This document shows positions 29,998-58,805 of a DNA stretch of 64,000 nt, piece by piece. This DNA is from Escherichia coli (lineage in GTDB: Bacteria > Pseudomonadota > Gammaproteobacteria > Enterobacterales > Enterobacteriaceae): the NCBI RefSeq assembly GCF_003334335.1, contig NZ_QOWQ01000001.1. One strand, written 5' to 3'. Position numbers and translations under genes: made by a program. Position 1 is the stretch's first letter. Each line of letters begins with the position of its first letter. Below the pieces are notes generated by a model that was not told the DNA's origin, did not search any database, and saw only the letters and a list, made by a program, of their open reading frames with translations.

Positions 29998-31446
29998 TTA
30001 TTCTCCATGCTCATTTTTCTTCAGCTTGCGCATCAGAAGCCACATACGTACTGTCCTGACTTTTAAATCTTTATCAGAGACGGATTCCTTCACCAGGTCA
30101 GCATGATGCTGATAGCCATTAAAGAAGACGTTCAGCACAACGGCGCTAAGGGTTGCGAGCATAATGCCGCTATGTAGCAGCGGTTGCAGTACGGCCGGTA
30201 ACTTAGAAAAGAAATCGTGAGAGAGCGTCGGAGTCATGCCAACGCCGAGACTGATCGCCACAATATAGAGGTTGTAACGGTTGGTGGTGTAGTTACAGCG
30301 CGACAGAATTCGAATCCCTGTCGCCAGTACCATGCCGAACATCACTAGACCAGCGCCGCCCAGCACAAATTGCGGAATGGAGGCTACCAGCACCGCCATT
30401 TTTGGCACCATGCCAAACAGGATTAATATAATTCCCGAAGAAATACACACCCAGCGGCTATGAACGCGCGTCACGCTAACCAGGCCAACGTTTTGAGAAA
30501 ATGACGTGTGGGGGAAGCTGTTAAACGTGCCGCCTATCATTGTCCCTACGCCATCGACACGCAGCCCGCGAATAATATCGTGCGAAGAGAGTTTACGACC
30601 GACTATTTCACCCAGTGCCAGGAACATCCCCATCGACTCGATAAACACGATGATTAACACGGCAGTCATGGTCAGAATGGAAACGGGATCGAAAATCGGC
30701 ATACCAAACGACATCGGCGTAACAATCGCAAACCATGAAGCATCATGTAGCCCGGATAAATTGACTTCATTCATCATCCACGAAAGTAAAAAGCCAAATA
30801 CAATCCCCAGTAATACGGCGACGTTGGACATAAATCCTTTCGCATAGCGAGTAATGAGCAAGATAAAAATTAAGACGGCAAAGGAGATACCTAAATAAAC
30901 GGGATTACCATATTGCGGATTCCCTTTACCTCCGGCGGCCCAGTCAATACCCACCTGAATGATGCTAAGCCCGATAGAAGTAATAACCACACCGGTAACC
31001 AGTGGCGGGAATAAAGGCATCAAGCGACCGATAAGTGGCGCTAATAATGTGGTGATAAAACCCGCGGCGATAGTGGCACCAAATATCCCCAGCAGGCCGA
31101 TATCCGGGTTCATCCCAATGGCTATCATTGGTGTTACAGCAGCAAAGGTCACCGACATAATCACCGGCAGGCGGATCCCCATAAAGCGGCCGATACCGAT
31201 ACATTGCAATAATGTGACGATCCCGCAGCAAAAGAGATCCGAGCTAATGAGCATCGCAATAGCTTCTTTTGAGAGGCCCAGTCGGTCACCAATCATAAGA
31301 GGAACAGCGACTGCACCTGCGTACATGACAAGGACGTGTTGCAGACCGAGTATGATCAGCTTTCCTGGTGATAATATGCGGTCAACCTCATCAGTTGGGC
31401 GGTCTTGCCCAGAAGATGAGGGAAGTTGGGAATCTATGGCGCTCAT
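29998..31446 (-). CDS. uacT: Uric acid:H+ symporter, NAT/NCS2 family (YgfU)
   Basis: ORF 29998..31575 trimmed to ATG 31446, preceded by AAGGAGA. Sequence MSAIDSQLPSSSGQDRPTDE..., 482 aa. NAT signature FSQNVGLVSVTRVHSR. Confidence 0.93.
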   Translation of the reverse strand: MSAIDSQLPSSSGQDRPTDEVDRILSPGKLIILGLQHVLVMYAGAVAVPLMIGDRLGLSKEAIAMLISSDLFCCGIVTLLQCIGIGRFMGIRLPVIMSVTFAAVTPMIAIGMNPDIGLLGIFGATIAAGFITTLLAPLIGRLMPLFPPLVTGVVITSIGLSIIQVGIDWAAGGKGNPQYGNPVYLGISFAVLIFILLITRYAKGFMSNVAVLLGIVFGFLLSWMMNEVNLSGLHDASWFAIVTPMSFGMPIFDPVSILTMTAVLIIVFIESMGMFLALGEIVGRKLSSHDIIRGLRVDGVGTMIGGTFNSFPHTSFSQNVGLVSVTRVHSRWVCISSGIILILFGMVPKMAVLVASIPQFVLGGAGLVMFGMVLATGIRILSRCNYTTNRYNLYIVAISLGVGMTPTLSHDFFSKLPAVLQPLLHSGIMLATLSAVVLNVFFNGYQHHADLVKESVSDKDLKVRTVRMWLLMRKLKKNEHGE

Positions 31447-43654: not shown

Positions 43655-46600
43655 TTACACCTCCACGCGGCCCAGCAGATAATGATGATGCTGGTGGACA
43701 TGGCTGATGATGCGGCACATATCGTTCAGCTCCGGTGGTACGTTGTTAAACTGACCTTTGCTGTCGATGTTTAACACCCAGCTTTGGTTATTCAGACGTA
43801 CTCGTACCCGGCAATCTTCCACAAGGAAGCCTGGGTTGCTGCTGTTATCAAAGTCTTGCGCCAGGCTGAAGACGGTGATTTTGTCTTTGTACGGTTTACC
43901 GTTCCACGGACAGAACTGAGCGCAGTTGCCGCATTCGTTACAGTAAGCGTCGAGGTGCAGCGTCTGGAAACGGTTCTGGAAGCCTGGGACCGCAATGGAG
44001 ACGTTGGCGCGGTTCGGGCAGACATCCACACACTTGCTGCAAACGTAGTTACATTCGAGGCAGCGAGCGGCTTCCTGGGCGACAAACGCGTCACGATCGT
44101 CACTGTTCACCAGCGTGATAGAGATATCGCCTTTACGTTGATAGATTTCCGCTGGATTGACGTTGTTCCAGTATTTATCGTTCTGGTGGGAACGGATATT
44201 TTCCCGACTAAGGATGGCATCGGTCGCCCGACGCGCGGTTCCGACAGCAGCGACAATGGAGGATGGTCCGCGCTGTACGTCGCCGATCATAAAGACGTCA
44301 GTCAGACGAGTTTCGCCATTATGGTCGACGTCTGGCCAGCCGTTTTTGTCCAGCGGCACGCCCATCGCATTCAGGGCTTCAGTATCCTGCTGTTCACCAA
44401 TGGCGGTGATCAGGCTGTCTACAAGCAGTGTTACTGTTTCATTGGTTTCAACCGGACGACGACGACCTTTCTCATCCGGTTCGCCAAGCGACATAACGCG
44501 CAAGGTTAAGGTGCCATCAGCATCGAAACGTTCCGGATTATTCAGGAAACGGAACTCTACGCCGTCGTGCAACGCTTCTTCATACTCTTCGCGCCATGCG
44601 GGCATCTCTTGTAGTGAACGACGGTAAACGATCGTTGCTTTTTCTACGCCTGGAACGCGTAACGCCGCACGAGCGCAGTCCATTGCGGTGTTACCCGCCC
44701 CGACAACGACCACATGTTTGCCCAGCTTGAGCGCTGTACCCTTGTTGTATTCACGCAGGAAGGGGAGTGATTTCCAGACATTTTGGTTGTCGCCCGCCAG
44801 TTTCACACCGCTATTTTTATCAGTGCCGGTGGCAATCAGAACATAGTGGAAGCCCTGATTTTTTAACTGCTCAATGGTTAAATCGGGTGAGCAGCCATAC
44901 TCAAATTTCACGCCGTGAGCGGCAACAAAATCGATATCGTGCTGAATTAACTCTGCAGGAATACGGAACTGAGGAATGATATTTTTCACCACGCCGCCCG
45001 CATTGGCTTCGCGTTCAAACAGCGTAACCGGATGGCCCGCTCTGGCAAGGAAGTAACCTGCTGCCAGACCCGCCGGACCTGCACCAATCACGGCAACCGG
45101 ATGGCGTGAACCAGAACCGGCTGGTTTGTGCCAGCGTTGCTTATATTCATCCCAACCTTTTTCCAGCGCGACTTTTTTCAGTTCGCGGATATTCAGCGCA
45201 CTGTCGTAATCCAGGCGGGTACAGTTGTATTGGCACTGGTGATCGCAAATATGACCGGTAATGGCGGGCAGAGCGTTGCGTTGGTAGATGAGTTCCAGCG
45301 CGTCGGCATAGCGGTGTTCGCCAAGCAGACGGATGTATTCCGGAATATCTTGCTTGATAGCGCAGGCAGTAACACAGGGGGCAACGTAGCAGTCGGTCAG
45401 CGGCAGGTCTTCTGCCACTTCAATACGCTCTTCTGGCTTCCAGTGTTTCTGGGTGTATTCCATGGTTAACGCATCTGCTGCCAGTCTGTTCAGTCGTTCG
45501 ACGTCAACATGGTCAAGTCCCCAGGCGTCGGAGCCTTCCAGCTCGCGCATGCAGGCACTTAAGCGCAGATAGCCGCCAGGTTTCAGCAGGTCGGTTGCCA
45601 TAGTAATAGGGCGAATACCTGTATCAAAAATATCGCGGATAGTCAGCTGACTGGCACCACCGGAATAAGAAATGGGCAGTTTGCCGTCAAAGGCGCGAGA
45701 GAGAACTGCTGCAACATTGATGGAGAGCGGGAACAGCGCACGGCCTGACATATACATCTCTTCACCAGGCAGTGCGCCTTTATTGTTGATGGTGCCGAGA
45801 GTGTTAGTCAGTTTTACGCCAAAGCCGAGTGATTTTTCTTTTGCCAGTGCCATCAGGCGTTCCAGCATTTCCAGTGCTTGCGTCAGCTTGAGGTCGTGAT
45901 CAAATGACTCTTCTTTTAAGCCTATGTAACCGAAACCGCAGACATCGAGGATCTCACGAACACGCGCGTACCCCAGTAAGGTCGGGTTAAGTTTCACAAA
46001 GGTGTTGAGCCCTTTTTCTTCCAGCATGTAGCGGCAAATGGCTTCGATTTCATGCGGAGGACAGCCGTGCATGGTGGAGAGGGTGACGCCATGCACCATA
46101 CTGGTGGGGATGCGAGCGGGTAAGGCTTGCAAGCTTTCGCGTTTTTCCTGCAATCCGTGGCGAGCTAAAAATGCGTCATCCTGGAGTAATTTATTCAGCG
46201 TATCGCGATATTGAGCGAATTTCGGATGGTCAGATGCGTCCATCATATTGTCGATGAACTGTTGCATCGGCGGTTGCTTAATACCTTCGAGGTTGTAACC
46301 GACGCTCATATTAAAGATGAACGATTTACCGGAATCAGAAGGCTGGAACATCGCTTCGAGAAGGTGCAGGGCAAACCAGGCTTTGAGGTATTCATCCCAG
46401 GCTTTAAGCAGGGTAAATTCGGTAGACCATTCGGTGTTAAAGCACTCGTCTTCGGCATCGATACAGGGCTTTTCCAGCTCCAGGCGGTCAAGAATTTGGA
46501 CGGTTTTTAGTTCGATGAAGCGTCCGCCAGTCAGCCAGGAAGTGACAATATTTTGCGCGAGCTGCGTGTGCGGGCCAGCGGCAGGGCCGACGGGAGTGGC

Positions 46601-46753
46601 ACAGGTTTCACCGAAGACGCTAACAGTTTTACCTTTTACAGGTGAGTAAAACTGTTGCTCGGGAATACCAAAGATTGAGCGTTGTTGTTGGTATTCATCA
46701 AATATGCGCGTCAAAAGTTCCTCAAACGGAATGGGACGCATAATATCCCCCAT
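43655..46753 (-). CDS. ygfK: Large flavo-iron-sulfur oxidoreductase: barrel domain + GltD-like FeS/FAD/NAD(P)H + 2x[4Fe-4S]. Historically annotated as a putative selenate reductase subunit
   Basis: 1032-aa ORF. Motifs are VKLTNTLG / SYSGGAS (FMN-barrel-like), [67 protein letters not shown] and CNECGNCAQFCP. Confidence 0.92.
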   Translation of the reverse strand: MGDIMRPIPFEELLTRIFDEYQQQRSIFGIPEQQFYSPVKGKTVSVFGETCATPVGPAAGPHTQLAQNIVTSWLTGGRFIELKTVQILDRLELEKPCIDAEDECFNTEWSTEFTLLKAWDEYLKAWFALHLLEAMFQPSDSGKSFIFNMSVGYNLEGIKQPPMQQFIDNMMDASDHPKFAQYRDTLNKLLQDDAFLARHGLQEKRESLQALPARIPTSMVHGVTLSTMHGCPPHEIEAICRYMLEEKGLNTFVKLNPTLLGYARVREILDVCGFGYIGLKEESFDHDLKLTQALEMLERLMALAKEKSLGFGVKLTNTLGTINNKGALPGEEMYMSGRALFPLSINVAAVLSRAFDGKLPISYSGGASQLTIRDIFDTGIRPITMATDLLKPGGYLRLSACMRELEGSDAWGLDHVDVERLNRLAADALTMEYTQKHWKPEERIEVAEDLPLTDCYVAPCVTACAIKQDIPEYIRLLGEHRYADALELIYQRNALPAITGHICDHQCQYNCTRLDYDSALNIRELKKVALEKGWDEYKQRWHKPAGSGSRHPVAVIGAGPAGLAAGYFLARAGHPVTLFEREANAGGVVKNIIPQFRIPAELIQHDIDFVAAHGVKFEYGCSPDLTIEQLKNQGFHYVLIATGTDKNSGVKLAGDNQNVWKSLPFLREYNKGTALKLGKHVVVVGAGNTAMDCARAALRVPGVEKATIVYRRSLQEMPAWREEYEEALHDGVEFRFLNNPERFDADGTLTLRVMSLGEPDEKGRRRPVETNETVTLLVDSLITAIGEQQDTEALNAMGVPLDKNGWPDVDHNGETRLTDVFMIGDVQRGPSSIVAAVGTARRATDAILSRENIRSHQNDKYWNNVNPAEIYQRKGDISITLVNSDDRDAFVAQEAARCLECNYVCSKCVDVCPNRANVSIAVPGFQNRFQTLHLDAYCNECGNCAQFCPWNGKPYKDKITVFSLAQDFDNSSNPGFLVEDCRVRVRLNNQSWVLNIDSKGQFNNVPPELNDMCRIISHVHQHHHYLLGRVEV

Positions 46754-50206: not shown

Positions 50207-50234
50207 TGGCCGGATGGTATTACCCACCCGGCCT
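50207..50234. terminator. 28-nt hairpin, copy 1 (TGGCCGGATGGTATTACCCACCCGGCCT), next to the yqeB stop
   Basis: 10-bp stem with one mismatch. The T-rich run (ATTTTCATTT) lies on the minus-strand side, so it would stop yqeA-direction transcripts. Confidence 0.45.
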
Positions 50235-50256
50235 GAGACTGATGACAAACGCCAAA

Positions 50257-50357
50257 TTGCCTGATGCGCTACGCTTATCAGGCCTACAAGTGCATTGCAA
50301 TCTATTGAATTTGCGATGTTTTGTAGGACGGATAAGGCGCTCGCGCCGCATCCGGCA
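50257..50357. repeat. BIME: two inverted REP units
   Basis: TTGCCTGATGCGCTACGCTTATCAGGCCTACA ... TGTAGGACGGATAAGGCGCTCGCGCCGCATCCGGCA. Confidence 0.9.
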
Positions 50358-50386
50358 TCAACAAAGCGCACTTACTTGACAATCTT

Positions 50387-50414
50387 TGGCCGGATGGTAT
50401 TACCCACCCGGCCT
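50387..50414. terminator. 28-nt hairpin, copy 2; exact duplicate of 50207-50234, located 180 bp away next to the yqeA stop
   Basis: Identical 28-mer. The T-rich run (TTTAAATT) lies on the plus-strand side, so it would stop yqeB-direction transcripts. Confidence 0.45.
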
Positions 50415-50419
50415 TTAAA

Positions 50420-51352
50420 TTACTGACAAATCACCGTTCCTGTTTTGCCTTCAATCCCTTCTTTCGCTTTGCTCAATACGGTAATCAGTGCTTCACGACC
50501 TGCGCGAGAGCGAGCAAACGAGGCGGCAGCTTCCACTTTAGGCAGCATAGAACCTTTCGCAAAATGACCTTCTTCGATAAAGCGTTCAGCATCACTTAAT
50601 GACAGGCGATCGAGCCACTGTTCATTCTCTTTACCGAAGTTAATGGCCACTTTTTCTACCGCAGTCAGAATGATCAGCATATCGGCATCAATCATTTCTG
50701 CTAAACGGGCGCTGGCCCAGTCTTTATCGATAACCGCGCTGGCACCACGCAGATGGTTACCTTCACGAATAACAGGGATACCACCACCGCCAACGGTGAT
50801 CACCACCTGACCTGCATCTACCAGAGCTTTAACCGTTTCTTTTTCAATGATATCAACCGGTTTTGGCGAGGCAACAACACGGCGATAGCCGCGACCAGCA
50901 TCTTCTTTCAGAGTGTAACCCTGTTTTGTCAGTTGCTCTGCTTCTTGCTCGGTAAAGAACGAACCGATCGGCTTGGTCGGGTTGAGGAATGCCGGATCGT
51001 TAGCGTCGACTTCGACCTGAGTAACCAGCGTTGCTACAGGTTTATTAATGCCCCGAGAAAGCAGTTCTTCTCTTAAAGCGTTTTGTAGATCGTAACCAAT
51101 ATAACCCTGGCTTAATGCAACACAGACAGACATCGGCAGCATTGGCGAGTGCGCTTCAGTTTTTGCGGCAGCTTCAAAGGCCTGGTTAATCATGCCCACC
51201 TGCGGCCCGTTACCATGAGTGACGATAACTTCATGTCCCTGGGCAATTAAATCAACAATTGCCTGAGAAGTAATTTTTACCGCTTTCATTTGCCCGGCCA
51301 GGTCATCGCCCAGCGCATTCCCGCCCAGGGCGAGAACAATTTTCTTACTCAT
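50420..51352 (-). CDS. yqeA: Carbamate kinase-like protein
   Basis: 310-aa ORF with IVLALGGNAL and VTHGNGPQVG motifs. Confidence 0.92.
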   Translation of the reverse strand: MSKKIVLALGGNALGDDLAGQMKAVKITSQAIVDLIAQGHEVIVTHGNGPQVGMINQAFEAAAKTEAHSPMLPMSVCVALSQGYIGYDLQNALREELLSRGINKPVATLVTQVEVDANDPAFLNPTKPIGSFFTEQEAEQLTKQGYTLKEDAGRGYRRVVASPKPVDIIEKETVKALVDAGQVVITVGGGGIPVIREGNHLRGASAVIDKDWASARLAEMIDADMLIILTAVEKVAINFGKENEQWLDRLSLSDAERFIEEGHFAKGSMLPKVEAAASFARSRAGREALITVLSKAKEGIEGKTGTVICQ

Positions 51353-51399
51353 TTTTCCTCACTCATCATTCTTGATTGTGTATAGATCCCTGGCAGTGG

Positions 51400-52785
51400 T
51401 TAGAGCACGGGAGGGACAAACGGTTTGCGTCGCAGGAAACGACCTCGCCCGGCTTTGCCTGTAAAGGTGCCGTCACAGAAAATCGTTTCACCACGGGATA
51501 AGGTTCTGACAATCGCGCCCTGACAGGTAAAACCCTCCCATGGCGAGTAGTCGGCGTTGTCGTGGAGATGGCGATGCTGAATTTGTTGGCTCTGACGTGG
51601 GTCGATAATCACCACGTCGCCGTCGGAACCGGGCGCTAATAATCCTTTTTGCGGCCACAGGCCAAACAACCTGGCGGGCATTGCGCTGGTTAATTCAACA
51701 AAGCGTTCCGGTGTTATACGTCCCGTCATCACGCCACTGGAAAACAGTAACTGCATGCGGTTTTCCACACCGGGTAAGCCATTTGGGCAGCGACTGAAAT
51801 CGCCTTTAGAAATTTGCAGGCGTTGAGCCATCGAGAAGGTGCAGTGATCGGTTGCCACCACGTCAATCGCACCATCGCTGATGCCACACCACAGTTTGTC
51901 CTGCTCGCGTACGTTACGCAGCGGTGGGCTAAGAATGAACTTCATGCCATCTTCTGTATCGTAACTGCGTTCGTCCAACAGGAGATATTGTGGGCAGGTT
52001 TCAACCCAGACTGGCTGGTGATTCGCACGGGCAAGACGCAGATAATCCAGACCTAAGCCGTTAGACAGGTGCACGATATAGAGCGGGGCGTTACCGGCAA
52101 TTTGTGCCAGGTTAATCATGCGGGCGATGGCTTCCGCTTCGCATTCCAGAGGGCGACTCAAGGCATGATAGCGCGGCGCGGTTAACCCTGCGGCGATAAA
52201 TTCCGCCCGCTTGCTGGCGATAGCCGCATCATTTTCCGGGTGCACGGTGGTCAGCGCGCCGGATTCATGCAAGCGGCGTAATGCCTGCAAAACCTCGTCA
52301 TCGTTGAGTTTGTATTGATAGGTTAAATAGAGTTTAAAACTGCTCAGTCCTTCCTCGACCATCATCGGGATTTCGTCGAGGATTGCGTGATTAATGTGCT
52401 GGATCACACCGTGAAAGCTGTAATCGATGACCGCTTTATGGGCGGCATAACCACGATAAACCTCCAGTTGATGGCGTAACCGACAGCCGTTTGGGCCAAA
52501 TCCCATATGGTCAATAATGGTTGTTGTACCGCCACACGCAGCTGCGCGGGTACCGGTAAAAAAATCATCACAACTGCGCGCGATGCCGACATCAATATTG
52601 AAATGCGTATGGACATCCACGCCGCCAGGGAAAACGTAACAGCCAGTGGCATCAATTTCTTCATACGGGAGCTGCGGCGAAATATTGTTGCCCAACTGGC
52701 GAACAATCCCGCTTTCAATCAGCAAATCCTGTTTGGCTTGTCCATCTGCGTTAACGACAGTGCCGTTTTTGATCAATACGCGCAT
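51400..52785 (-). CDS. hyuA: Cyclic amidohydrolase of the hydantoinase/dihydropyrimidinase family (D-phenylhydantoinase, YgeZ)
   Basis: ORF trimmed to ATG 52785 (MRVLIKNGTVVNADGQ...), 461 aa. Metal motif PGGVDVHTHF. Confidence 0.93.
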   Translation of the reverse strand: MRVLIKNGTVVNADGQAKQDLLIESGIVRQLGNNISPQLPYEEIDATGCYVFPGGVDVHTHFNIDVGIARSCDDFFTGTRAAACGGTTTIIDHMGFGPNGCRLRHQLEVYRGYAAHKAVIDYSFHGVIQHINHAILDEIPMMVEEGLSSFKLYLTYQYKLNDDEVLQALRRLHESGALTTVHPENDAAIASKRAEFIAAGLTAPRYHALSRPLECEAEAIARMINLAQIAGNAPLYIVHLSNGLGLDYLRLARANHQPVWVETCPQYLLLDERSYDTEDGMKFILSPPLRNVREQDKLWCGISDGAIDVVATDHCTFSMAQRLQISKGDFSRCPNGLPGVENRMQLLFSSGVMTGRITPERFVELTSAMPARLFGLWPQKGLLAPGSDGDVVIIDPRQSQQIQHRHLHDNADYSPWEGFTCQGAIVRTLSRGETIFCDGTFTGKAGRGRFLRRKPFVPPVL

Positions 52786-52793
52786 AGCAAACT

Positions 52794-52820
52794 CCAAAAA
52801 CCCTCCGGCGAACCGGAGGG
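52794..52820 (-). terminator. Intrinsic-terminator-like hairpin inside the ygeY-hyuA junction
   Basis: The minus strand reads CCCTCCGG-ttcg-CCGGAGGG followed by TTTTTGGAGTTTGCT-ATG. The U-run runs straight into the hyuA SD. Confidence 0.55.
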
Positions 52821-52837
52821 GAATAAGTGAAGAGTAA

Positions 52838-54049
52838 TTACTCTGTTGCCAGCCAGCTTAACGGGATTGCAGCGTACATCGCGGCACAGGTCACCAGGTG
52901 AGATTTCCAGGTTTTTTCGTTAGGTGCATGCGCTTCAGGTTCTTTACCCGGGCCAAAGCCGATCACCGGAATGCCGTGACGGCCCATGATAGATACGCCG
53001 TTAGTTGAGAAGGTCCACTTATCAACAACCGGCGCTTTGCCAAACAGCCCTTCGTAGGCATTCACCAGTGCTTTAACGGTGAAGTGATCTTCTTCCACTT
53101 TCCAGGTCGGGAAGTAGCATTCGGTTGGGTAAACCAGGCCAGTCCAGGACGGACGGTCGTAGTTGTACATAGAAACAACCGCGTTAGCTTTCTGTACTGC
53201 AGGCAGGGCGCGGATTTCGTCCAGCGCGCCTTCCCAGGTTTCGCCCCAGGTCAGACGACGGTCGATTGAAACTGCGCAGCTGTCTGCTACAGCGCAACGG
53301 CTTGGGGATGTGAAGAAGATTTCAGAAACGGTGAGGGTGCCTTTGCCGAGGAATTCGTCATAACCCAGACGTTGGGAGAGTTCTTGTAATTCGCCAAGAA
53401 TCGGACCCATTTTGAAAATGGCGTTATCACCGCGTTCTGGTGCAGAACCGTGGCAGCTAACACCCTGAACATCAATACGAATTTCCATACGACCGCGCTG
53501 ACCACGGTATACCTGGCAGTCGGTTGGTTCGGTACTGACCACAAATTCCGGGCGAATGCCGGATTGTTCAATAATGTACTGCCAGCACAGACCGTCGCAG
53601 TCTTCTTCCTGCACCGTACCGGTAACCAGCAGGGTATATTCATCTTCCAGACCGAGGTCTTTAATGATTTTACCGGCATAAACCATAGAGGCCATGCCAC
53701 CTTCCTGGTCGGAAGTACCGCGACCACCAATCAGTTCATCAGTTTCCATGCCTTCGTACGGATCGAAGTCCCAGTTTTTGATGTTGCCAATGCCGACGGT
53801 ATCGATATGAGCGTCCATTGCCACCAGACGCGGGCCGTGGCCGATATAACCGAGAACGTTGCCCATCGGGTCGATTTCAACTTTATCGAAGCCGACTTTT
53901 TCCATCTCTTCTTTAATACGATGTACTACGCGTTTCTCGTCGCAGCTTTCACTGGGAATAGCAACCATGTCGCGCAGGAAGCGAGTCATATCCGCCTGGT
54001 AATCTTTTGCTTTTTCAAGAATCAGTTTGAATGGAATATTCTTAGCCAT
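52838..54049 (-). CDS. ygeY: M20-family metallo-peptidase/deacylase (N-carbamoyl- or N-acyl-amino-acid amidohydrolase-like)
   Basis: 403-aa ORF with MDAHIDTVG and [10 protein letters not shown] metal/catalytic motifs. Confidence 0.9.
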
Positions 54050-54106
54050 TATTTTTCTCCAGATTTTTTACTCCCCGTTTTGCAGGGAGCAGTTCCAATA
54101 GGGTGA

Positions 54107-55303
54107 TTAAGGTGCTACAGCGTGTTTGCCTTCCCAGACAACTTCGCGGTAGTGCTTCACGTCGGTGTCGCCTTCAGTGCTGATAACCAGCACCACGGCA
54201 TCTTTGTTCAGCGCCAGTTTTTCCATCAGGCTTTGACGTTGCGGGTGATAATGAACCGCTGCGAGAACGCCCAAACCGACAGCGCCGGATTCACCGGAGA
54301 TGATGCGCGGGTCGTTGCCGTACGGATTACCCAGCACGCGCATACCTAATGCGGCAACGCTGTCCTGGCAGGAGATGAATTGGGTGGCGCAGTTACGTAG
54401 GATTTCCCAGCCCAGCGGGTTAGGTTCGCCACAGGCCAGGCCTGCCATGATGGTGGCCATATCACCGCCAACGTTGACGATGTCGCCTTTGACGCCGGAG
54501 CGATAAATACAGTCAGCTTTGTCAGGTTCAACAATAATGCTGTGCAGATTTTGCGGGCTATAGACGTCGACCAGATAACCCAGCACACCACCGGCCATTG
54601 CTCCGACACCGGCTTGCAGCAGAACGTGCGTCGGGGTTACGCCCATTTCACGCATTTGCTCGACGGCTTCATCTGCCAGGGTTGCGTAGCCTTGCATGAT
54701 CCAGGTTGGGATTTTGGTGTAACCTTCCCATGCCGTGTCCTGTACCACTTCCCAGCCGTGCTGCTGCGCGTGTTGCATGGTCAGGCGAACGGTATCGTCA
54801 TAGTTCATATCCGTGACGATGCACTCGGCACCGAGGTTCAGAATGGCGTCAACGCGTTCCTGAGCAGAACCTTTCGGCATGTAAATCACCGCATTCTGTC
54901 CGAGTTGCTGTGCTGCCCACGCCACACCGCGCCCGTGGTTGCCGTCGGTGGTGGTCGCGAAAGTCATTTTTTCGCCGATGGCATTTTTCAGGTGCTCAAA
55001 TGACAGCGTTTCGATATCAAGATGATATTTTTCACACAATAATTGAGCGATGGCGTACGCACCGCCAAGCATTTTGAAGGCGTTCAGACCGAATCGTTTT
55101 GATTCGTCTTTGACGAGAATTTTCTTCACACCAAAAAGGTTTGCGAGATCGTCCAGCGCACAAAGCGGTGTTGGGCGATAACCAGCTATTTTCTGGTGGA
55201 ACTGGCGCGCCAGTTTGGCCTGGCTTTGCGAAAAGAGCGGTGATGTTTCGCCGTTGAAAAATTTGTTATCGGCGATATCAATCTTCAATGAGAAAACGGA
55301 CAT
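54107..55303 (-). CDS. dpaL: 2,3-diaminopropionate ammonia-lyase (PLP)
   Basis: 398-aa ORF with PLP lysine context FGLNAFKMLGG. Confidence 0.93.
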   Translation of the reverse strand: MSVFSLKIDIADNKFFNGETSPLFSQSQAKLARQFHQKIAGYRPTPLCALDDLANLFGVKKILVKDESKRFGLNAFKMLGGAYAIAQLLCEKYHLDIETLSFEHLKNAIGEKMTFATTTDGNHGRGVAWAAQQLGQNAVIYMPKGSAQERVDAILNLGAECIVTDMNYDDTVRLTMQHAQQHGWEVVQDTAWEGYTKIPTWIMQGYATLADEAVEQMREMGVTPTHVLLQAGVGAMAGGVLGYLVDVYSPQNLHSIIVEPDKADCIYRSGVKGDIVNVGGDMATIMAGLACGEPNPLGWEILRNCATQFISCQDSVAALGMRVLGNPYGNDPRIISGESGAVGLGVLAAVHYHPQRQSLMEKLALNKDAVVLVISTEGDTDVKHYREVVWEGKHAVAP

Positions 55304-55360
55304 ATCCTATCCTTTTGGCCTCTGGAAATAGAGGGCCGACCAGCTGATCGGCCCGAGGGG

Positions 55361-56551
55361 TTATTTCACGCGTTCTTGCGCTTCTTTCAGCAGTTGCTCG
55401 AGCAGTGCACCTGGTTTGGCGTATTTACGGGACAGGATCATCGCGGCGATGATATAAGGCTTCCAGCTGGCTTCTTTGTAGGTAGCGATACGGTATTTTT
55501 CGAATACGCCTTCAGTCACTTCACCTTCTTTACAGGATACGCCGCTGATATCAGCTGGCAGGCAGTGCATGTACAGGGCTTCGCCATCACGGGTCAGTTC
55601 CATCATCTCTTCAGTACAATGCCAGTCTTTGTGTTGCGCGTTCTGTGCCAGACACTGTTTTTCCAGTGCTTTTAAGCCTTCGTGATCGTTCGCACGCAGC
55701 AATTCAGTACGCTCTTCCATCACTTTGTAAGGTGCCCATGACTTCGGATAAACGATGTCTGCGTCTTTGAAGGCTTCTTCCATGCTGGTGACCTGACGGA
55801 AGCTACCACCGGAGGCTTTAGCATTGTTTTTCGCCACTTCAACCACATCCGGGATCAGGTCGTAGCCTTCCGGATGGGCCAGGGTGACATCCATACCGAA
55901 GCGAGTCATCAGACCGATGATGCCTTGTGGTACAGAGAGCGGTTTGCCATAGCTTGGAGAGTAGGCCCAGGTCATGGCGATTTTTTTACCTTTCAGGTTT
56001 TCCAGTGAACCAAAGTGTTCACGTAACCACGCGAGGTCAGCCATTGACTGAGTCGGGTGGTCAATATCGCATTGCAGGTTCACTAAAGCCGGACGCTGTG
56101 GCAGTACACCCTGCTTGTAACCGTCATCAAGTGCAGCGCCAACTTCACGCATATAGGCGTTGCCTGCGCCCAGATACATATCGTCGCGAATACCAATAGC
56201 GTCGGCGCAGAAGGAGATCATATTGGCGGTTTCACGCACGGTTTCGCCGTGAGCGATTTGTGATTTGCCTTCGTCGAGATCTTGTTGTGCAAGGCCGAGC
56301 AGGTTAAGCGCGGAAGCATAAGAGAAGCGGGTACGGGTGGAGTTGTCGCGGAATACGGAAATACCTAATCCACTATTAAAGACTTTGGTTGAGATGTTTT
56401 CAGCACGCAGTGCTTTTAATGCTGCGGCAACGTCCAGTACTTGTTTCAGTTCATCTGGCGTCTGTTCCCACGTTAACAAAAAATCTTTCTCGTGAAGGTG
56501 AGAGGTCAGCGAATTGATATCCTTAATCAGCTCATTAACAGTTTTCATCAT
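55361..56551 (-). CDS. ygeW: Transcarbamylase-family protein whose physiological substrate I cannot assign
   Basis: 396-aa ORF with carbamoyl-phosphate motifs STRTR (NSTRTRFS), HPTQ (IDHPTQSMADL) and HCLP (MHCLPA). Confidence 0.92.
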   Translation of the reverse strand: MMKTVNELIKDINSLTSHLHEKDFLLTWEQTPDELKQVLDVAAALKALRAENISTKVFNSGLGISVFRDNSTRTRFSYASALNLLGLAQQDLDEGKSQIAHGETVRETANMISFCADAIGIRDDMYLGAGNAYMREVGAALDDGYKQGVLPQRPALVNLQCDIDHPTQSMADLAWLREHFGSLENLKGKKIAMTWAYSPSYGKPLSVPQGIIGLMTRFGMDVTLAHPEGYDLIPDVVEVAKNNAKASGGSFRQVTSMEEAFKDADIVYPKSWAPYKVMEERTELLRANDHEGLKALEKQCLAQNAQHKDWHCTEEMMELTRDGEALYMHCLPADISGVSCKEGEVTEGVFEKYRIATYKEASWKPYIIAAMILSRKYAKPGALLEQLLKEAQERVK

Positions 56552-56641: not shown

Positions 56642-56657
56642 AACAATAAGTGTGCCA
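56642..56657 (-). promoter_or_regulatory. Candidate sigma54 (-24/-12) promoter reading into ygeW-dpaL-ygeY-hyuA-yqeA
   Basis: The minus strand reads CTGGCAC-ACTTA-TTGTT. The -24 element is perfect and spacing is exact, but the -12 element is GT instead of GC. The -12 element is about 95 nt upstream of the ygeW ATG. Confidence 0.4.
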
Positions 56658-57026: not shown

Positions 57027-58805
57027 ATGGAGCTTGCTACTACGCAGTCAGTATTGATGCAAATTCAACCGACAATTCAGCGTTTTGCCAGAATGCTTGC
57101 CAGCGTTTTGCAGCTTGAGGTTGAGATCGTTGATGAAAACTTGTGTCGCGTTGCCGGAACGGGCGCGTATGGGAAGTTTCTTGGTCGCCAGTTGAGCGGC
57201 AACTCACGCCTGCTCCGCCACGTCCTGGAAACGAAAACTGAAAAAGTTGTGACACAGTCTCGCTTCGATCCCCTTTGCGAAGGTTGCGATAGTAAAGAAA
57301 ATTGCCGCGAAAAAGCATTTCTGGGTACGCCTGTCATTTTACAGGATCGTTGTGTTGGGGTGATAAGTTTGATTGCCGTTACCCACGAGCAACAAGAGCA
57401 TATCAGTGATAATTTACGCGAATTTTCTGATTATGTTCGCCATATATCCACCATTTTTGTTTCGAAACTTCTGGAGGATCAGGGGCCAGGAGATAACATC
57501 AGTAAAATATTTGCGACCATGATCGATAATATGGATCAGGGCGTATTAGTTGTAGATGATGAAAATCGGGTTCAGTTTGTTAATCAGACTGCCTTAAAAA
57601 CACTTGGTGTTGTGCAAAATAATATTATTGGGAAACCTATCCGTTTCAGACCATTAACATTTGAGAGTAATTTTACCCATGGACATATGCAGCATATTGT
57701 TTCATGGGACGATAAAAGTGAATTAATCATTGGTCAATTGCATAACATTCAGGGCCGACAATTATTTTTAATGGCGTTTCACCAATCGCATACCAGTTTT
57801 TCTGTAGCAAATGCACCTGATGAACCGCATATTGAACAATTGGTTGGCGAGTGCCGTGTTATGCGGCAATTAAAACGACTCATTAGCCGTATTGCACCCA
57901 GCCCATCCAGCGTTATGGTGGTTGGTGAAAGCGGCACGGGTAAAGAAGTCGTCGCCCGTGCAATCCATAAGTTGAGCGGAAGACGGAATAAACCCTTTAT
58001 TGCTATCAACTGTGCCGCGATTCCGGAGCAGCTTCTGGAGAGCGAACTGTTCGGTTATGTTAAAGGTGCATTTACTGGCGCTTCTGCCAACGGTAAAACA
58101 GGGTTGATTCAGGCGGCGAATACGGGCACGCTGTTTCTCGATGAAATAGGTGATATGCCATTAATGTTGCAGGCTAAATTACTGCGCGCTATTGAGGCAC
58201 GTGAAATTCTGCCGATTGGTGCCAGTAGCCCAATACAAGTCGACATTCGCATCATTTCTGCAACTAATCAGAATTTGGCCCAGTTCATTGCCGAAGGTAA
58301 ATTCCGCGAAGATCTCTTCTACCGACTTAATGTTATCCCGATAACTCTGCCACCGCTGCGTGAACGTCAGGAAGATATTGAACTATTGGTGCATTACTTT
58401 TTACATCTGCATACCCGTCGTCTGGGATCGGTTTATCCTGGCATTGCTCCCGATGTCGTCGAAATATTGCGTAAGCATCGTTGGCCCGGAAACCTGCGCG
58501 AGTTAAGCAATTTGATGGAATATCTGGTTAACGTGGTTCCTTCAGGTGAAGTTATCGACAGCACGCTATTGCCGCCAAATCTGCTGAATAATGGCACAAC
58601 GGAGCAAAGTGATGTAACAGAGGTCAGTGAGGCGCACCTGTCACTCGATGATGCGGGCGGCACGGCGCTGGAGGAGATGGAAAAGCAAATGATCCGCGAG
58701 GCGCTTTCACGTCATAACAGCAAGAAGCAAGTTGCTGATGAACTGGGCATCGGCATTGCTACGCTCTATCGCAAGATTAAGAAATATGAGTTGTTAAACA
58801 CATAA
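57027..58805 (+). CDS. ygeV: Sigma54-dependent transcriptional activator (bacterial enhancer-binding protein)
   Basis: 592-aa ORF with Walker A GESGTGKE, sigma54-contact loop GAFTGA, Fis-type HTH VADELGIGIATLYRKIKKY and an N-terminal sensor + PAS-like region. Confidence 0.95.
   Translation: MELATTQSVLMQIQPTIQRFARMLASVLQLEVEIVDENLCRVAGTGAYGKFLGRQLSGNSRLLRHVLETKTEKVVTQSRFDPLCEGCDSKENCREKAFLGTPVILQDRCVGVISLIAVTHEQQEHISDNLREFSDYVRHISTIFVSKLLEDQGPGDNISKIFATMIDNMDQGVLVVDDENRVQFVNQTALKTLGVVQNNIIGKPIRFRPLTFESNFTHGHMQHIVSWDDKSELIIGQLHNIQGRQLFLMAFHQSHTSFSVANAPDEPHIEQLVGECRVMRQLKRLISRIAPSPSSVMVVGESGTGKEVVARAIHKLSGRRNKPFIAINCAAIPEQLLESELFGYVKGAFTGASANGKTGLIQAANTGTLFLDEIGDMPLMLQAKLLRAIEAREILPIGASSPIQVDIRIISATNQNLAQFIAEGKFREDLFYRLNVIPITLPPLRERQEDIELLVHYFLHLHTRRLGSVYPGIAPDVVEILRKHRWPGNLRELSNLMEYLVNVVPSGEVIDSTLLPPNLLNNGTTEQSDVTEVSEAHLSLDDAGGTALEEMEKQMIREALSRHNSKKQVADELGIGIATLYRKIKKYELLNT

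Follow-up and report, generated by a model that had tools for sequence, protein, structure and literature searches.

What does a run of five tightly packed genes for a carbamoyltransferase, an ammonia-lyase, an M20 amidohydrolase, a hydantoinase and a carbamate kinase do for Escherichia coli? The genes in question, ygeW-dpaL-ygeY-hyuA-yqeA, fill positions 50420-56551 (6,132 nt) of a 64,000-nt stretch of E. coli chromosome (assembly GCF_003334335.1, contig NZ_QOWQ01000001.1), the whole of which we refer to as the window. A preliminary description drawn from the sequence had taken them for a route that opens a reduced purine, removes two ureido groups and ends at 2,3-diaminopropionate (DAP). We are highly confident that the five genes make up the lower half of the route by which E. 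coli degrades uric acid reductively under anaerobic conditions, a route that goes by the name of 2,8-dioxopurine or 'yanthine' pathway. The functions of the genes, the DAP end-point and the coupling of YgeW and YqeA to ATP formation are already known and were published in 2025, when the pathway was solved experimentally in two independent studies, by Liu et al. (bioRxiv 10.1101/2025.04.24.650524) and by Li et al. (Life Metab, PMC12507026); both worked on these same genes of E. coli K-12.

The locus belongs to the species at large. The interval is 100% identical to several complete E. coli chromosomes and is present at no less than 80% coverage in 5161 of 5426 complete E. coli genomes, where its genes are annotated as hyuA, ygeY, dpaL, ygeW and arcC. 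Through this pathway E. coli and many anaerobes of the gut get rid of urate from the host and gain ATP and pyruvate, and efforts are under way to build the pathway into probiotics against hyperuricaemia and gout. A published commentary compares the two 2025 studies, the pathway has entered many reviews as well as gutSMASH 2.0, and a conserved ygeW-yqeA-hyuA-ygeY-ssnA-xdh neighbourhood had been noted as early as 2013 (Barba et al., PMC4016543). Reasoning from raw sequence recovered the published logic almost fully, missing the orientation of the three-carbon unit and the enzymes encoded beyond the interval, and the locus is useful as a positive control for such readings.

All five open reading frames (ORFs) lie head-to-tail on the minus strand, begin with ATG, end with TAA and contain no internal stops, and their coordinates give gaps of 57, 57, 52 and 47 nt in order from ygeW to yqeA, in agreement with the co-directional arrangement first described. 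The enzyme names proposed at that stage also held for every protein. A family was assigned when a protein scored above the curated cut-off of an NCBIfam equivalog model, with Pfam domains as a cross-check; each of the five, all of them E. coli reference proteins, passed its cut-off with Pfam domains in agreement. YgeW reached 825.2 bits against NF005538 (cut-off 453) and 675.5 bits against TIGR03316 (cut-off 500), carries the OTCace_N and OTCace domains, and aligns over its full length (residues 1-396) with PDB 3Q98 (E 5.9e-270). Its carbamoyl-phosphate binding motifs STRTR and HPTQ, at residues 71 and 165, and its HCLP motif at residue 329 are intact, as had been described. The protein fell below every cut-off for ornithine carbamoyltransferases (OTCases), e.g. 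133 bits against a required 281. A trefoil knot is ascribed to its fold on the basis of the full-length match to 3Q98 and of a paper title (Li et al. 2011, cited in PMC4016543).

DpaL, also named YgeX, scored 651.1 bits against the diaminopropionate ammonia-lyase model TIGR03528 (cut-off 532.25), matched PDB 4D9G over residues 1-398, its full length (E 2e-274), and has its pyridoxal phosphate (PLP)-binding lysine, Lys77, within an NAFK motif. YgeY scored 721.6 bits against TIGR03526 (cut-off 321.5) and 713.6 bits against NF009555 (cut-off 321) and contains the Peptidase_M20 (PF01546) and M20_dimer (PF07687) domains; its assignment follows from scores and domains rather than from individual metal ligands. 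HyuA was likewise assigned by score, rather than by its individual carboxylated-lysine and histidine ligands, to the D-hydantoinase/dihydropyrimidinase model TIGR02033 (675.5 bits, cut-off 393.25), and it aligned over its full length with the D-hydantoinase structures 1YNY and 1K1D (E ~1e-109). YqeA exceeded the cut-off of the carbamate kinase model TIGR00746 (385.6 bits, cut-off 358.25) and matched PDB 1B7B (E 5.5e-90).

In the published route urate is first 6-dehydroxylated to 2,8-dioxopurine (Liu et al.), a step assigned to XdhD/YgfM, after which YgfK reduces 2,8-dioxopurine to its dihydro form (Liu et al.) and SsnA breaks the six-membered ring open, with 5-(ureidomethyl)hydantoin (UMH) as the main product (both studies). 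These upstream enzymes, encoded in the same window, would prepare the substrate for the five-gene set. HyuA would then act first, opening the five-membered hydantoin ring to (R)-2,3-diureidopropionate as reported by Liu et al.; the minor product 5-ureido-dihydrouracil is likewise hydrolysed by HyuA (Li et al.). In a second step YgeW would use phosphate to split off one ureido group, and both studies describe the conversion of 2,3-diureidopropionate with inorganic phosphate (Pi) to carbamoyl phosphate and a mono-ureido acid. YqeA would pass the carbamoyl phosphate to ADP, yielding ATP and carbamate, and Liu et al. measured ATP formed in vitro from diureidopropanoate by YgeW and YqeA with ADP and Mg2+. 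The second ureido group would be hydrolysed by YgeY to leave DAP, in line with reconstitutions from both groups, and DpaL/YgeX would finally convert DAP to pyruvate and 2 NH3.

The evidence for this sequence of reactions is genetic as well as biochemical. Mutants of Clostridium sporogenes and E. coli were used to trap intermediates, and stepwise reconstitution in vitro gave ~50% pyruvate (Liu et al.); the route was rebuilt independently with enzymes from E. coli and from Clostridium difficile (Li et al.). In C. sporogenes as well as in E. coli, ygeX mutants accumulated DAP, and DAP from 13C-urate was turned into labelled pyruvate by YgeX (Liu et al.). The proposals that DAP is the three-carbon remnant of the purine, that one ureido group is phosphorolysed by YgeW with ATP made through YqeA, and that the other is hydrolysed by YgeY are all borne out by these data. 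Three outcomes had been named as speaking against the proposals, namely an inactive YgeW, a loss of dpaL that changes nothing and an absence of label from pyruvate, and the published experiments went against all three.

The studies part over which of the two ureido groups YgeW removes. According to Liu et al. the product is 3-amino-2-ureidopropanoate, the 3-ureido group having been removed, an assignment made by comparison with synthetic material in retention time, accurate mass and MS/MS. According to Li et al. it is albizziin (2-amino-3-ureidopropionate), the 2-ureido group having been removed. We lean, by a small degree, towards a YgeW that attacks the 3-ureido or side-chain group and a YgeY that removes the group on N-alpha, a preference drawn from the relatives of the two enzymes. 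YgeW scored 133 bits against ornithine-type and 129 bits against N-acetylornithine-type carbamoyltransferases, compared with 75 bits against the aspartate type, and, its own family aside, the solved structures nearest to it are those of N-acetylornithine carbamoyltransferases (AOTCases). The HCLP motif is typical of ornithine-type carbamoyltransferases. The nearest solved relative of YgeY is the acetylornithine deacetylase ArgE (7RSF), which removes N-alpha-acyl groups. Because an AOTCase works on the side-chain nitrogen and ArgE on the N-alpha-acyl group, an order in which the 3-ureido group leaves first fits the nearest relatives of both enzymes.

The likeness can be drawn further. AOTCase and ArgE serve the N-acetylcitrulline route to arginine, where the substrate is an N-alpha-acylated diamino acid with a side-chain ureido group, as is diureidopropionate, which may be regarded formally as a shortened N-acyl-citrulline analogue. 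By this analogy YgeW and YgeY look like an AOTCase/ArgE pair run in the catabolic direction. Several differences separate the two systems: YgeW and YgeY are catabolic, the acyl group is carbamoyl, the chain is C3 and not C5, the substrate is D-(R)-configured (Liu et al.), and the similarity is remote (E ~1e-19 and ~1e-16, respectively). Removal of the 3-ureido group by YgeW would, if true, settle the point on which the two 2025 studies differ.

The reverse order, in which phosphorolysis by YgeW takes off the 2-(N-alpha) ureido group and leaves albizziin and YgeY hydrolyses the 3-ureido group in the manner of a beta-ureidopropionase, is a serious contender that we rate somewhat short of an even chance. 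The product of UMH, HyuA, YgeW and Pi co-eluted with commercial albizziin, albizziin was turned into pyruvate by YgeY together with YgeX, and C. difficile has UacY, a D-aminoacylase homologue of the N-alpha-acyl type, in place of YgeW and YqeA (all Li et al.). Against this order, the isomers may have been unresolved by the chromatography, the competing product was identified against synthetic material, YgeW is far nearer to the carbamoyltransferases of side-chain amines than to the aspartate type, and the known chemistry of ArgE points the other way. Some observations nevertheless weigh against our own account of the chemistry: the two studies disagree on the product of YgeW, albizziin did serve as a precursor of pyruvate, one study (Liu et al.) described its structures for the dihydro-intermediate and the hydantoin as provisional, and the atom map given next derives from published structures rather than from position-specific labelling.

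The orientation of the three-carbon unit is where the preliminary description went wrong. It had made C6 the carboxyl carbon and left C4 bearing a nitrogen; the published intermediates point to the reverse, with C1 (the carboxyl) of DAP deriving from purine C4, C2 from C5 (bearing N7) and C3 from C6 (bearing N1, and reduced to CH2). Since the pathway begins with the loss of the 6-oxo group and the ring-opened intermediate is UMH, the CH2 that carries the N1-C2-N3 ureido group would be C6, and the C4=O of the hydantoin would be purine C4, which HyuA turns into the carboxyl. The original chemistry taken literally, with C4=C5 reduced, HyuA opening N1-C6, C6 as carboxyl and C4 as CH2-N, is in our view very improbable. 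It has in its favour that HyuA is an equivalog-level dihydropyrimidinase/D-hydantoinase and that 5-ureido-dihydrouracil, a dihydrouracil, is among its substrates (Li et al.). Removal of the 6-oxo group comes first, however, the isomer that accumulates is 2,8-dioxopurine and not xanthine (both Liu et al.), the six-membered ring is reported to be opened by SsnA and not by HyuA, and the ring carbonyl of the ureidomethyl-hydantoin must be C4.

Pyrimidine-style ring opening, as it had been called, does occur, but it is carried out by YgfK and SsnA from outside the five-gene interval, with HyuA acting mainly on the five-membered ring. An M20-type hydrolase had been cited as the third step of reductive pyrimidine catabolism, which holds in some organisms only. 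That pathway (PydA, dihydropyrimidine dehydrogenase; PydB, dihydropyrimidinase; PydC, beta-ureidopropionase) shares with the present one the logic of reduction, hydrolysis of the N3-C4 amide of a six-membered ring and removal of a ureido group. Here, by contrast, there are two ureido groups, one of which is phosphorolysed, and the product is a diamino acid and not beta-alanine. HyuA is a dihydropyrimidinase at the level of its family, and its likeness to the Pyd pathway is one of analogy, not of membership.

The energy-conserving part recalls the arginine deiminase and the anaerobic allantoin/oxalurate pathways, in which phosphorolysis of a ureido group also gives carbamoyl phosphate and then ATP by carbamate kinase, a parallel that Liu et al. 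draw as well. The substrate here is 2,3-diureidopropionate, not citrulline or oxalurate, and YgeW falls into a distinct family of knotted transcarbamylases, for which there is a dedicated equivalog model. No arcA was found in the 46-kb annotated neighbourhood, and the scores of YgeW below the OTCase cut-offs likewise set the locus apart from an arginine deiminase operon. A further relative in function is the ureidoglycine carbamoyltransferase of Rubrobacter xylanophilus (PMC4016543), a purine-catabolic transcarbamylase that phosphorolyses the diureido acid allantoate and is encoded beside a carbamate kinase; this transcarbamylase is of the pseudo-ATCase lineage and serves an oxidative (allantoin) route without diaminopropionate. 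With the 2,8-dioxopurine pathway itself we found no substantive difference; all of its enzymes are present and intact.

Least credible of all is a D-hydantoin or N-carbamoyl-D-amino-acid utilisation system, or a 'selenium metabolism-linked' hydrolase set unrelated to purines: the RefSeq names 'D-phenylhydantoinase' and 'YgeY family selenium metabolism-linked hydrolase' and the co-occurrence with the selenium-cofactor genes yqeB and yqeC suggest one, yet published work with mutants and reconstituted enzymes assigns every one of the five to the urate route, YgfK neither needed nor was stimulated by selenate (Liu et al.), and the neighbours are the urate transporter gene uacT with xdhD, ssnA and ygfK. 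The link to selenium arises because a selenium-dependent molybdenum hydroxylase starts the urate pathway.

We compared neighbourhoods across taxa among the 80 best ygeW loci. YgeW homologues with identities of at least 70% extend into Bacteroidota, Verrucomicrobiota, Spirochaetota and Riflebacteria. Throughout Enterobacterales, Aeromonas, Vibrionaceae and Shewanella the genes stand in the order ygeW-dpaL-ygeY-hyuA-yqeA, which was observed in Citrobacter, Klebsiella, Hafnia, Morganella, Serratia, Aeromonas, Photobacterium, Vibrio and Shewanella. Adjacency of ygeW and ygeY is the most persistent link (72 of the 80 loci, in several phyla), usually in the order ygeY-ygeW in distant phyla, and fits two enzymes that act consecutively on one substrate. 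In Photobacterium, Vibrio, Shewanella and Ferrimonas (loci L031-L042 and L057) the carbamate kinase in the yqeA position is 37-42% identical to E. coli YqeA and the other four proteins are 63-85% identical to their E. coli counterparts, which suggests that a different carbamate kinase lineage has taken the yqeA slot in these groups.

Six ygeW homologues with 71-77% identity (L063, L071, L073, L076, L080 and L081) had no other pathway gene within 10 kb; their hosts are Verrucomicrobiota, Kiritimatiellae, Marinifilum and two metagenome-assembled genomes of uncultured bacteria. Either the pathway genes are dispersed in these organisms or the YgeW-like enzymes have another role. One further locus (L065) had only a carbamate kinase and a weak dpaL-like match near ygeW. 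At L080 the N-terminus of a neighbouring ORF resembles argininosuccinate synthase (ArgG) by eye only. In Shigella flexneri (L005) hyuA is interrupted or absent (window positions 52115-52180) and the match to ygeY is 80%, between flanking genes that are 99-100% identical, which probably represents decay of the pathway.

The present analysis adds to the available text of the 2025 papers a conserved sigma-54 motif, intergenic hairpins, a ygeW lacking a Shine-Dalgarno (SD) sequence and a polymorphic insertion of repetitive extragenic palindromic (REP) elements. Transcription of the operon would most likely start at a sigma-54 promoter activated by YgeV. The element TGGCACacttaTTGTT in the spacer between the divergent ygeV and ygeW has one mismatch to TGGCAC-N5-TTGCW, and matches to the sigma-54 consensus are not enriched in the window (2 against 3.75 expected), both of which count against it. 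Because the count is not above chance, support for the promoter comes instead from its position, from conservation across genera and from published gSELEX data, which map an RpoN site to the ygeV/ygeW spacer (PMC8743547). A -24/-12 element of the form TGGCA[CT]-N5-TTGTT, with a variable spacer sequence, lies upstream of ygeW in 25 related loci from ~10 enterobacterial genera (L003-L056), at distances of 81-224 nt from the gene (81-122 nt in 22 of the loci and 224 nt in one). Sigma-54 promoters have been cited for 'ygeWXY' and for xdhABC, and a YgeV iModulon has been described (PMC10602906); ygeV was linked to ygeW in 48 of the 80 loci. With a relaxed sigma-54 pattern we observed no site upstream of xdhA, ygfK, uacT or ygfT in the window, despite the xdhABC promoter cited in the literature. 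A scan of the window for sigma-70 promoters was not enriched either, with 4 matches against 7.8 in shuffled sequence.

The claim that each gene has its own SD sequence stood for four of the five, with matches at dpaL (AAGGA/AGGA), ygeY (GGAG), hyuA (GGAG) and yqeA (GAGG). For ygeW it did not, as no 4-nt match to AGGAGGT occurs within 20 nt of either of the two adjacent ATGs with which the gene opens (56546-56551, minus strand), so that no SD sequence is recognisable. The RefSeq start is the second ATG (56548, giving 395 aa), and the second methionine is also where the alignment to the family model and to most homologues begins. For hyuA an alternative TTG lies upstream at 52797; the ATG at 52785 has the GGAG and is the RefSeq start.

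Two of the gaps contain terminator-like hairpins, GGGCCGAtcagctgGTCGGCCC after ygeW and CCCTCCGGttcgCCGGAGGG after ygeY. A terminator scan of the window was not enriched over shuffled sequence (11 against 8.2), and for that reason we retained only hairpins lying exactly within intergenic gaps. The hairpin after ygeW recurs in 37 of 50 related loci, its sequence differing between genera, and that after ygeY in 33 of 46, its position kept and its sequence not; a hairpin after hyuA is rare (3 of 32). The T-run behind the CCCTCCGGttcgCCGGAGGG hairpin abuts the GGAG of hyuA. These hairpins may be intra-operon attenuators or stabilisers of the mRNA. They would modulate read-through, set the stoichiometry of the enzymes and partly uncouple ygeWXY from hyuA-yqeA. 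The hairpin after ygeY fits the 'ygeWXY' transcription unit of the literature (PMC10602906). On the question of one operon or two, it argues for partial uncoupling, and the 52-nt ygeY-hyuA gap, in which no promoter is recognisable, argues for read-through. Taken jointly, removal of the 3-ureido group by YgeW as a mirror of AOTCase/ArgE and a role of the two hairpins as attenuators or stabilisers form a combination that falls just under an even chance in our estimation.

The remainder of the urate locus surrounds the five genes. RefSeq annotation mapped onto the window gives uacT, ygfT/S, xdhD, ygfM, ssnA, ygfK, mocA, yqeC, yqeB, ygeV and xdhABC, and the members of the 2,8-dioxopurine cluster (xdhD/ygfM, ygfK, ssnA, hyuA, ygeW, ygeY, ygeX, yqeA and uacT) are co-located and intact. 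Coordinates of all features are collected in the table.

Table. Genes and sequence elements of the urate locus, in positions of the 64,000-nt window.
Feature	Position	Strand	Remarks
ygeW, knotted carbamoyltransferase	56551-55361	-	396 aa
dpaL/ygeX, PLP-dependent 2,3-diaminopropionate ammonia-lyase	55303-54107	-	398 aa
ygeY, M20 amidohydrolase	54049-52838	-	403 aa
hyuA, D-hydantoinase	52785-51400	-	461 aa
yqeA (arcC), carbamate kinase	51352-50420	-	310 aa
Sigma-54-type promoter element TGGCACacttaTTGTT	56642-56657	-	~90-105 nt upstream of ygeW, in the ygeV-ygeW divergent spacer
GC-rich hairpin GGGCCGAtcagctgGTCGGCCC	55333-55354	-	directly after the ygeW stop; terminator-like match, 9 pairs, 7 GC
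Terminator-like hairpin CCCTCCGGttcgCCGGAGGG followed by TTTTT	52796-52820 (hairpin 52801-52820)	-	ygeY-hyuA gap; 8 pairs, 7 GC
Hairpin 3' of the yqeA stop	50387-50414	.	convergent yqeA/yqeB junction; lacks a T-run and was left unscored by the terminator scan
xdhD	38627-41497	-	upper half of the pathway, outside the interval first described; RefSeq annotation, ORF intact
ygfM	41494-42273	-	upper half of the pathway; RefSeq annotation, ORF intact
ssnA	42324-43652	-	upper half of the pathway; RefSeq annotation, ORF intact
ygfK	43655-46753	-	upper half of the pathway; RefSeq annotation, ORF intact
uacT, urate/H+ symporter	29998-31446	-	same regulon neighbourhood; RefSeq annotation, ORF intact
ygeV, sigma-54-dependent activator	57027-58805	+	divergent from ygeW, presumed regulator of the operon; RefSeq annotation

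At the convergent yqeA/yqeB junction an exact 28-nt direct repeat, TGGCCGGATGGTATTACCCACCCGGCCT, is present in two copies (50207-50234 and 50387-50414), each of them a GC-rich hairpin; the distal copy was scored as terminator-like in the scan (an identical hairpin at 50208-50233). The copies flank 152 nt (50235-50386) of palindromes that resemble REP elements or bacterial interspersed mosaic elements (BIMEs). One copy of TGGCCGGATGGTATTACCCACCCGGCCT and no insert was observed in Escherichia sp. E1V33, Citrobacter murliniae and Shigella flexneri. Presence of the insert varies within E. coli: at least 80% of the 321-nt junction is covered in only 1649 of 5426 genomes, and the span is 141 nt in the sampled E. 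coli genomes that lack the insert (6 rows). The arrangement resembles an insertion of REP elements, 180 nt long (50235-50414), by which the terminator hairpin became duplicated. Liu et al. reported that rates differ from one strain to another.

The first 30,000 nt of the window (1-30000) are ordinary, well-annotated E. coli core genome. Genes observed there include scpA, argP, rpiA, serA, the ibsC toxin, ssrS (6S RNA), zapA, pepP and ubiH/I, together with gcvTHP, bglA, xerD, dsbC, recJ, prfB with its programmed frameshift, lysS and idi.

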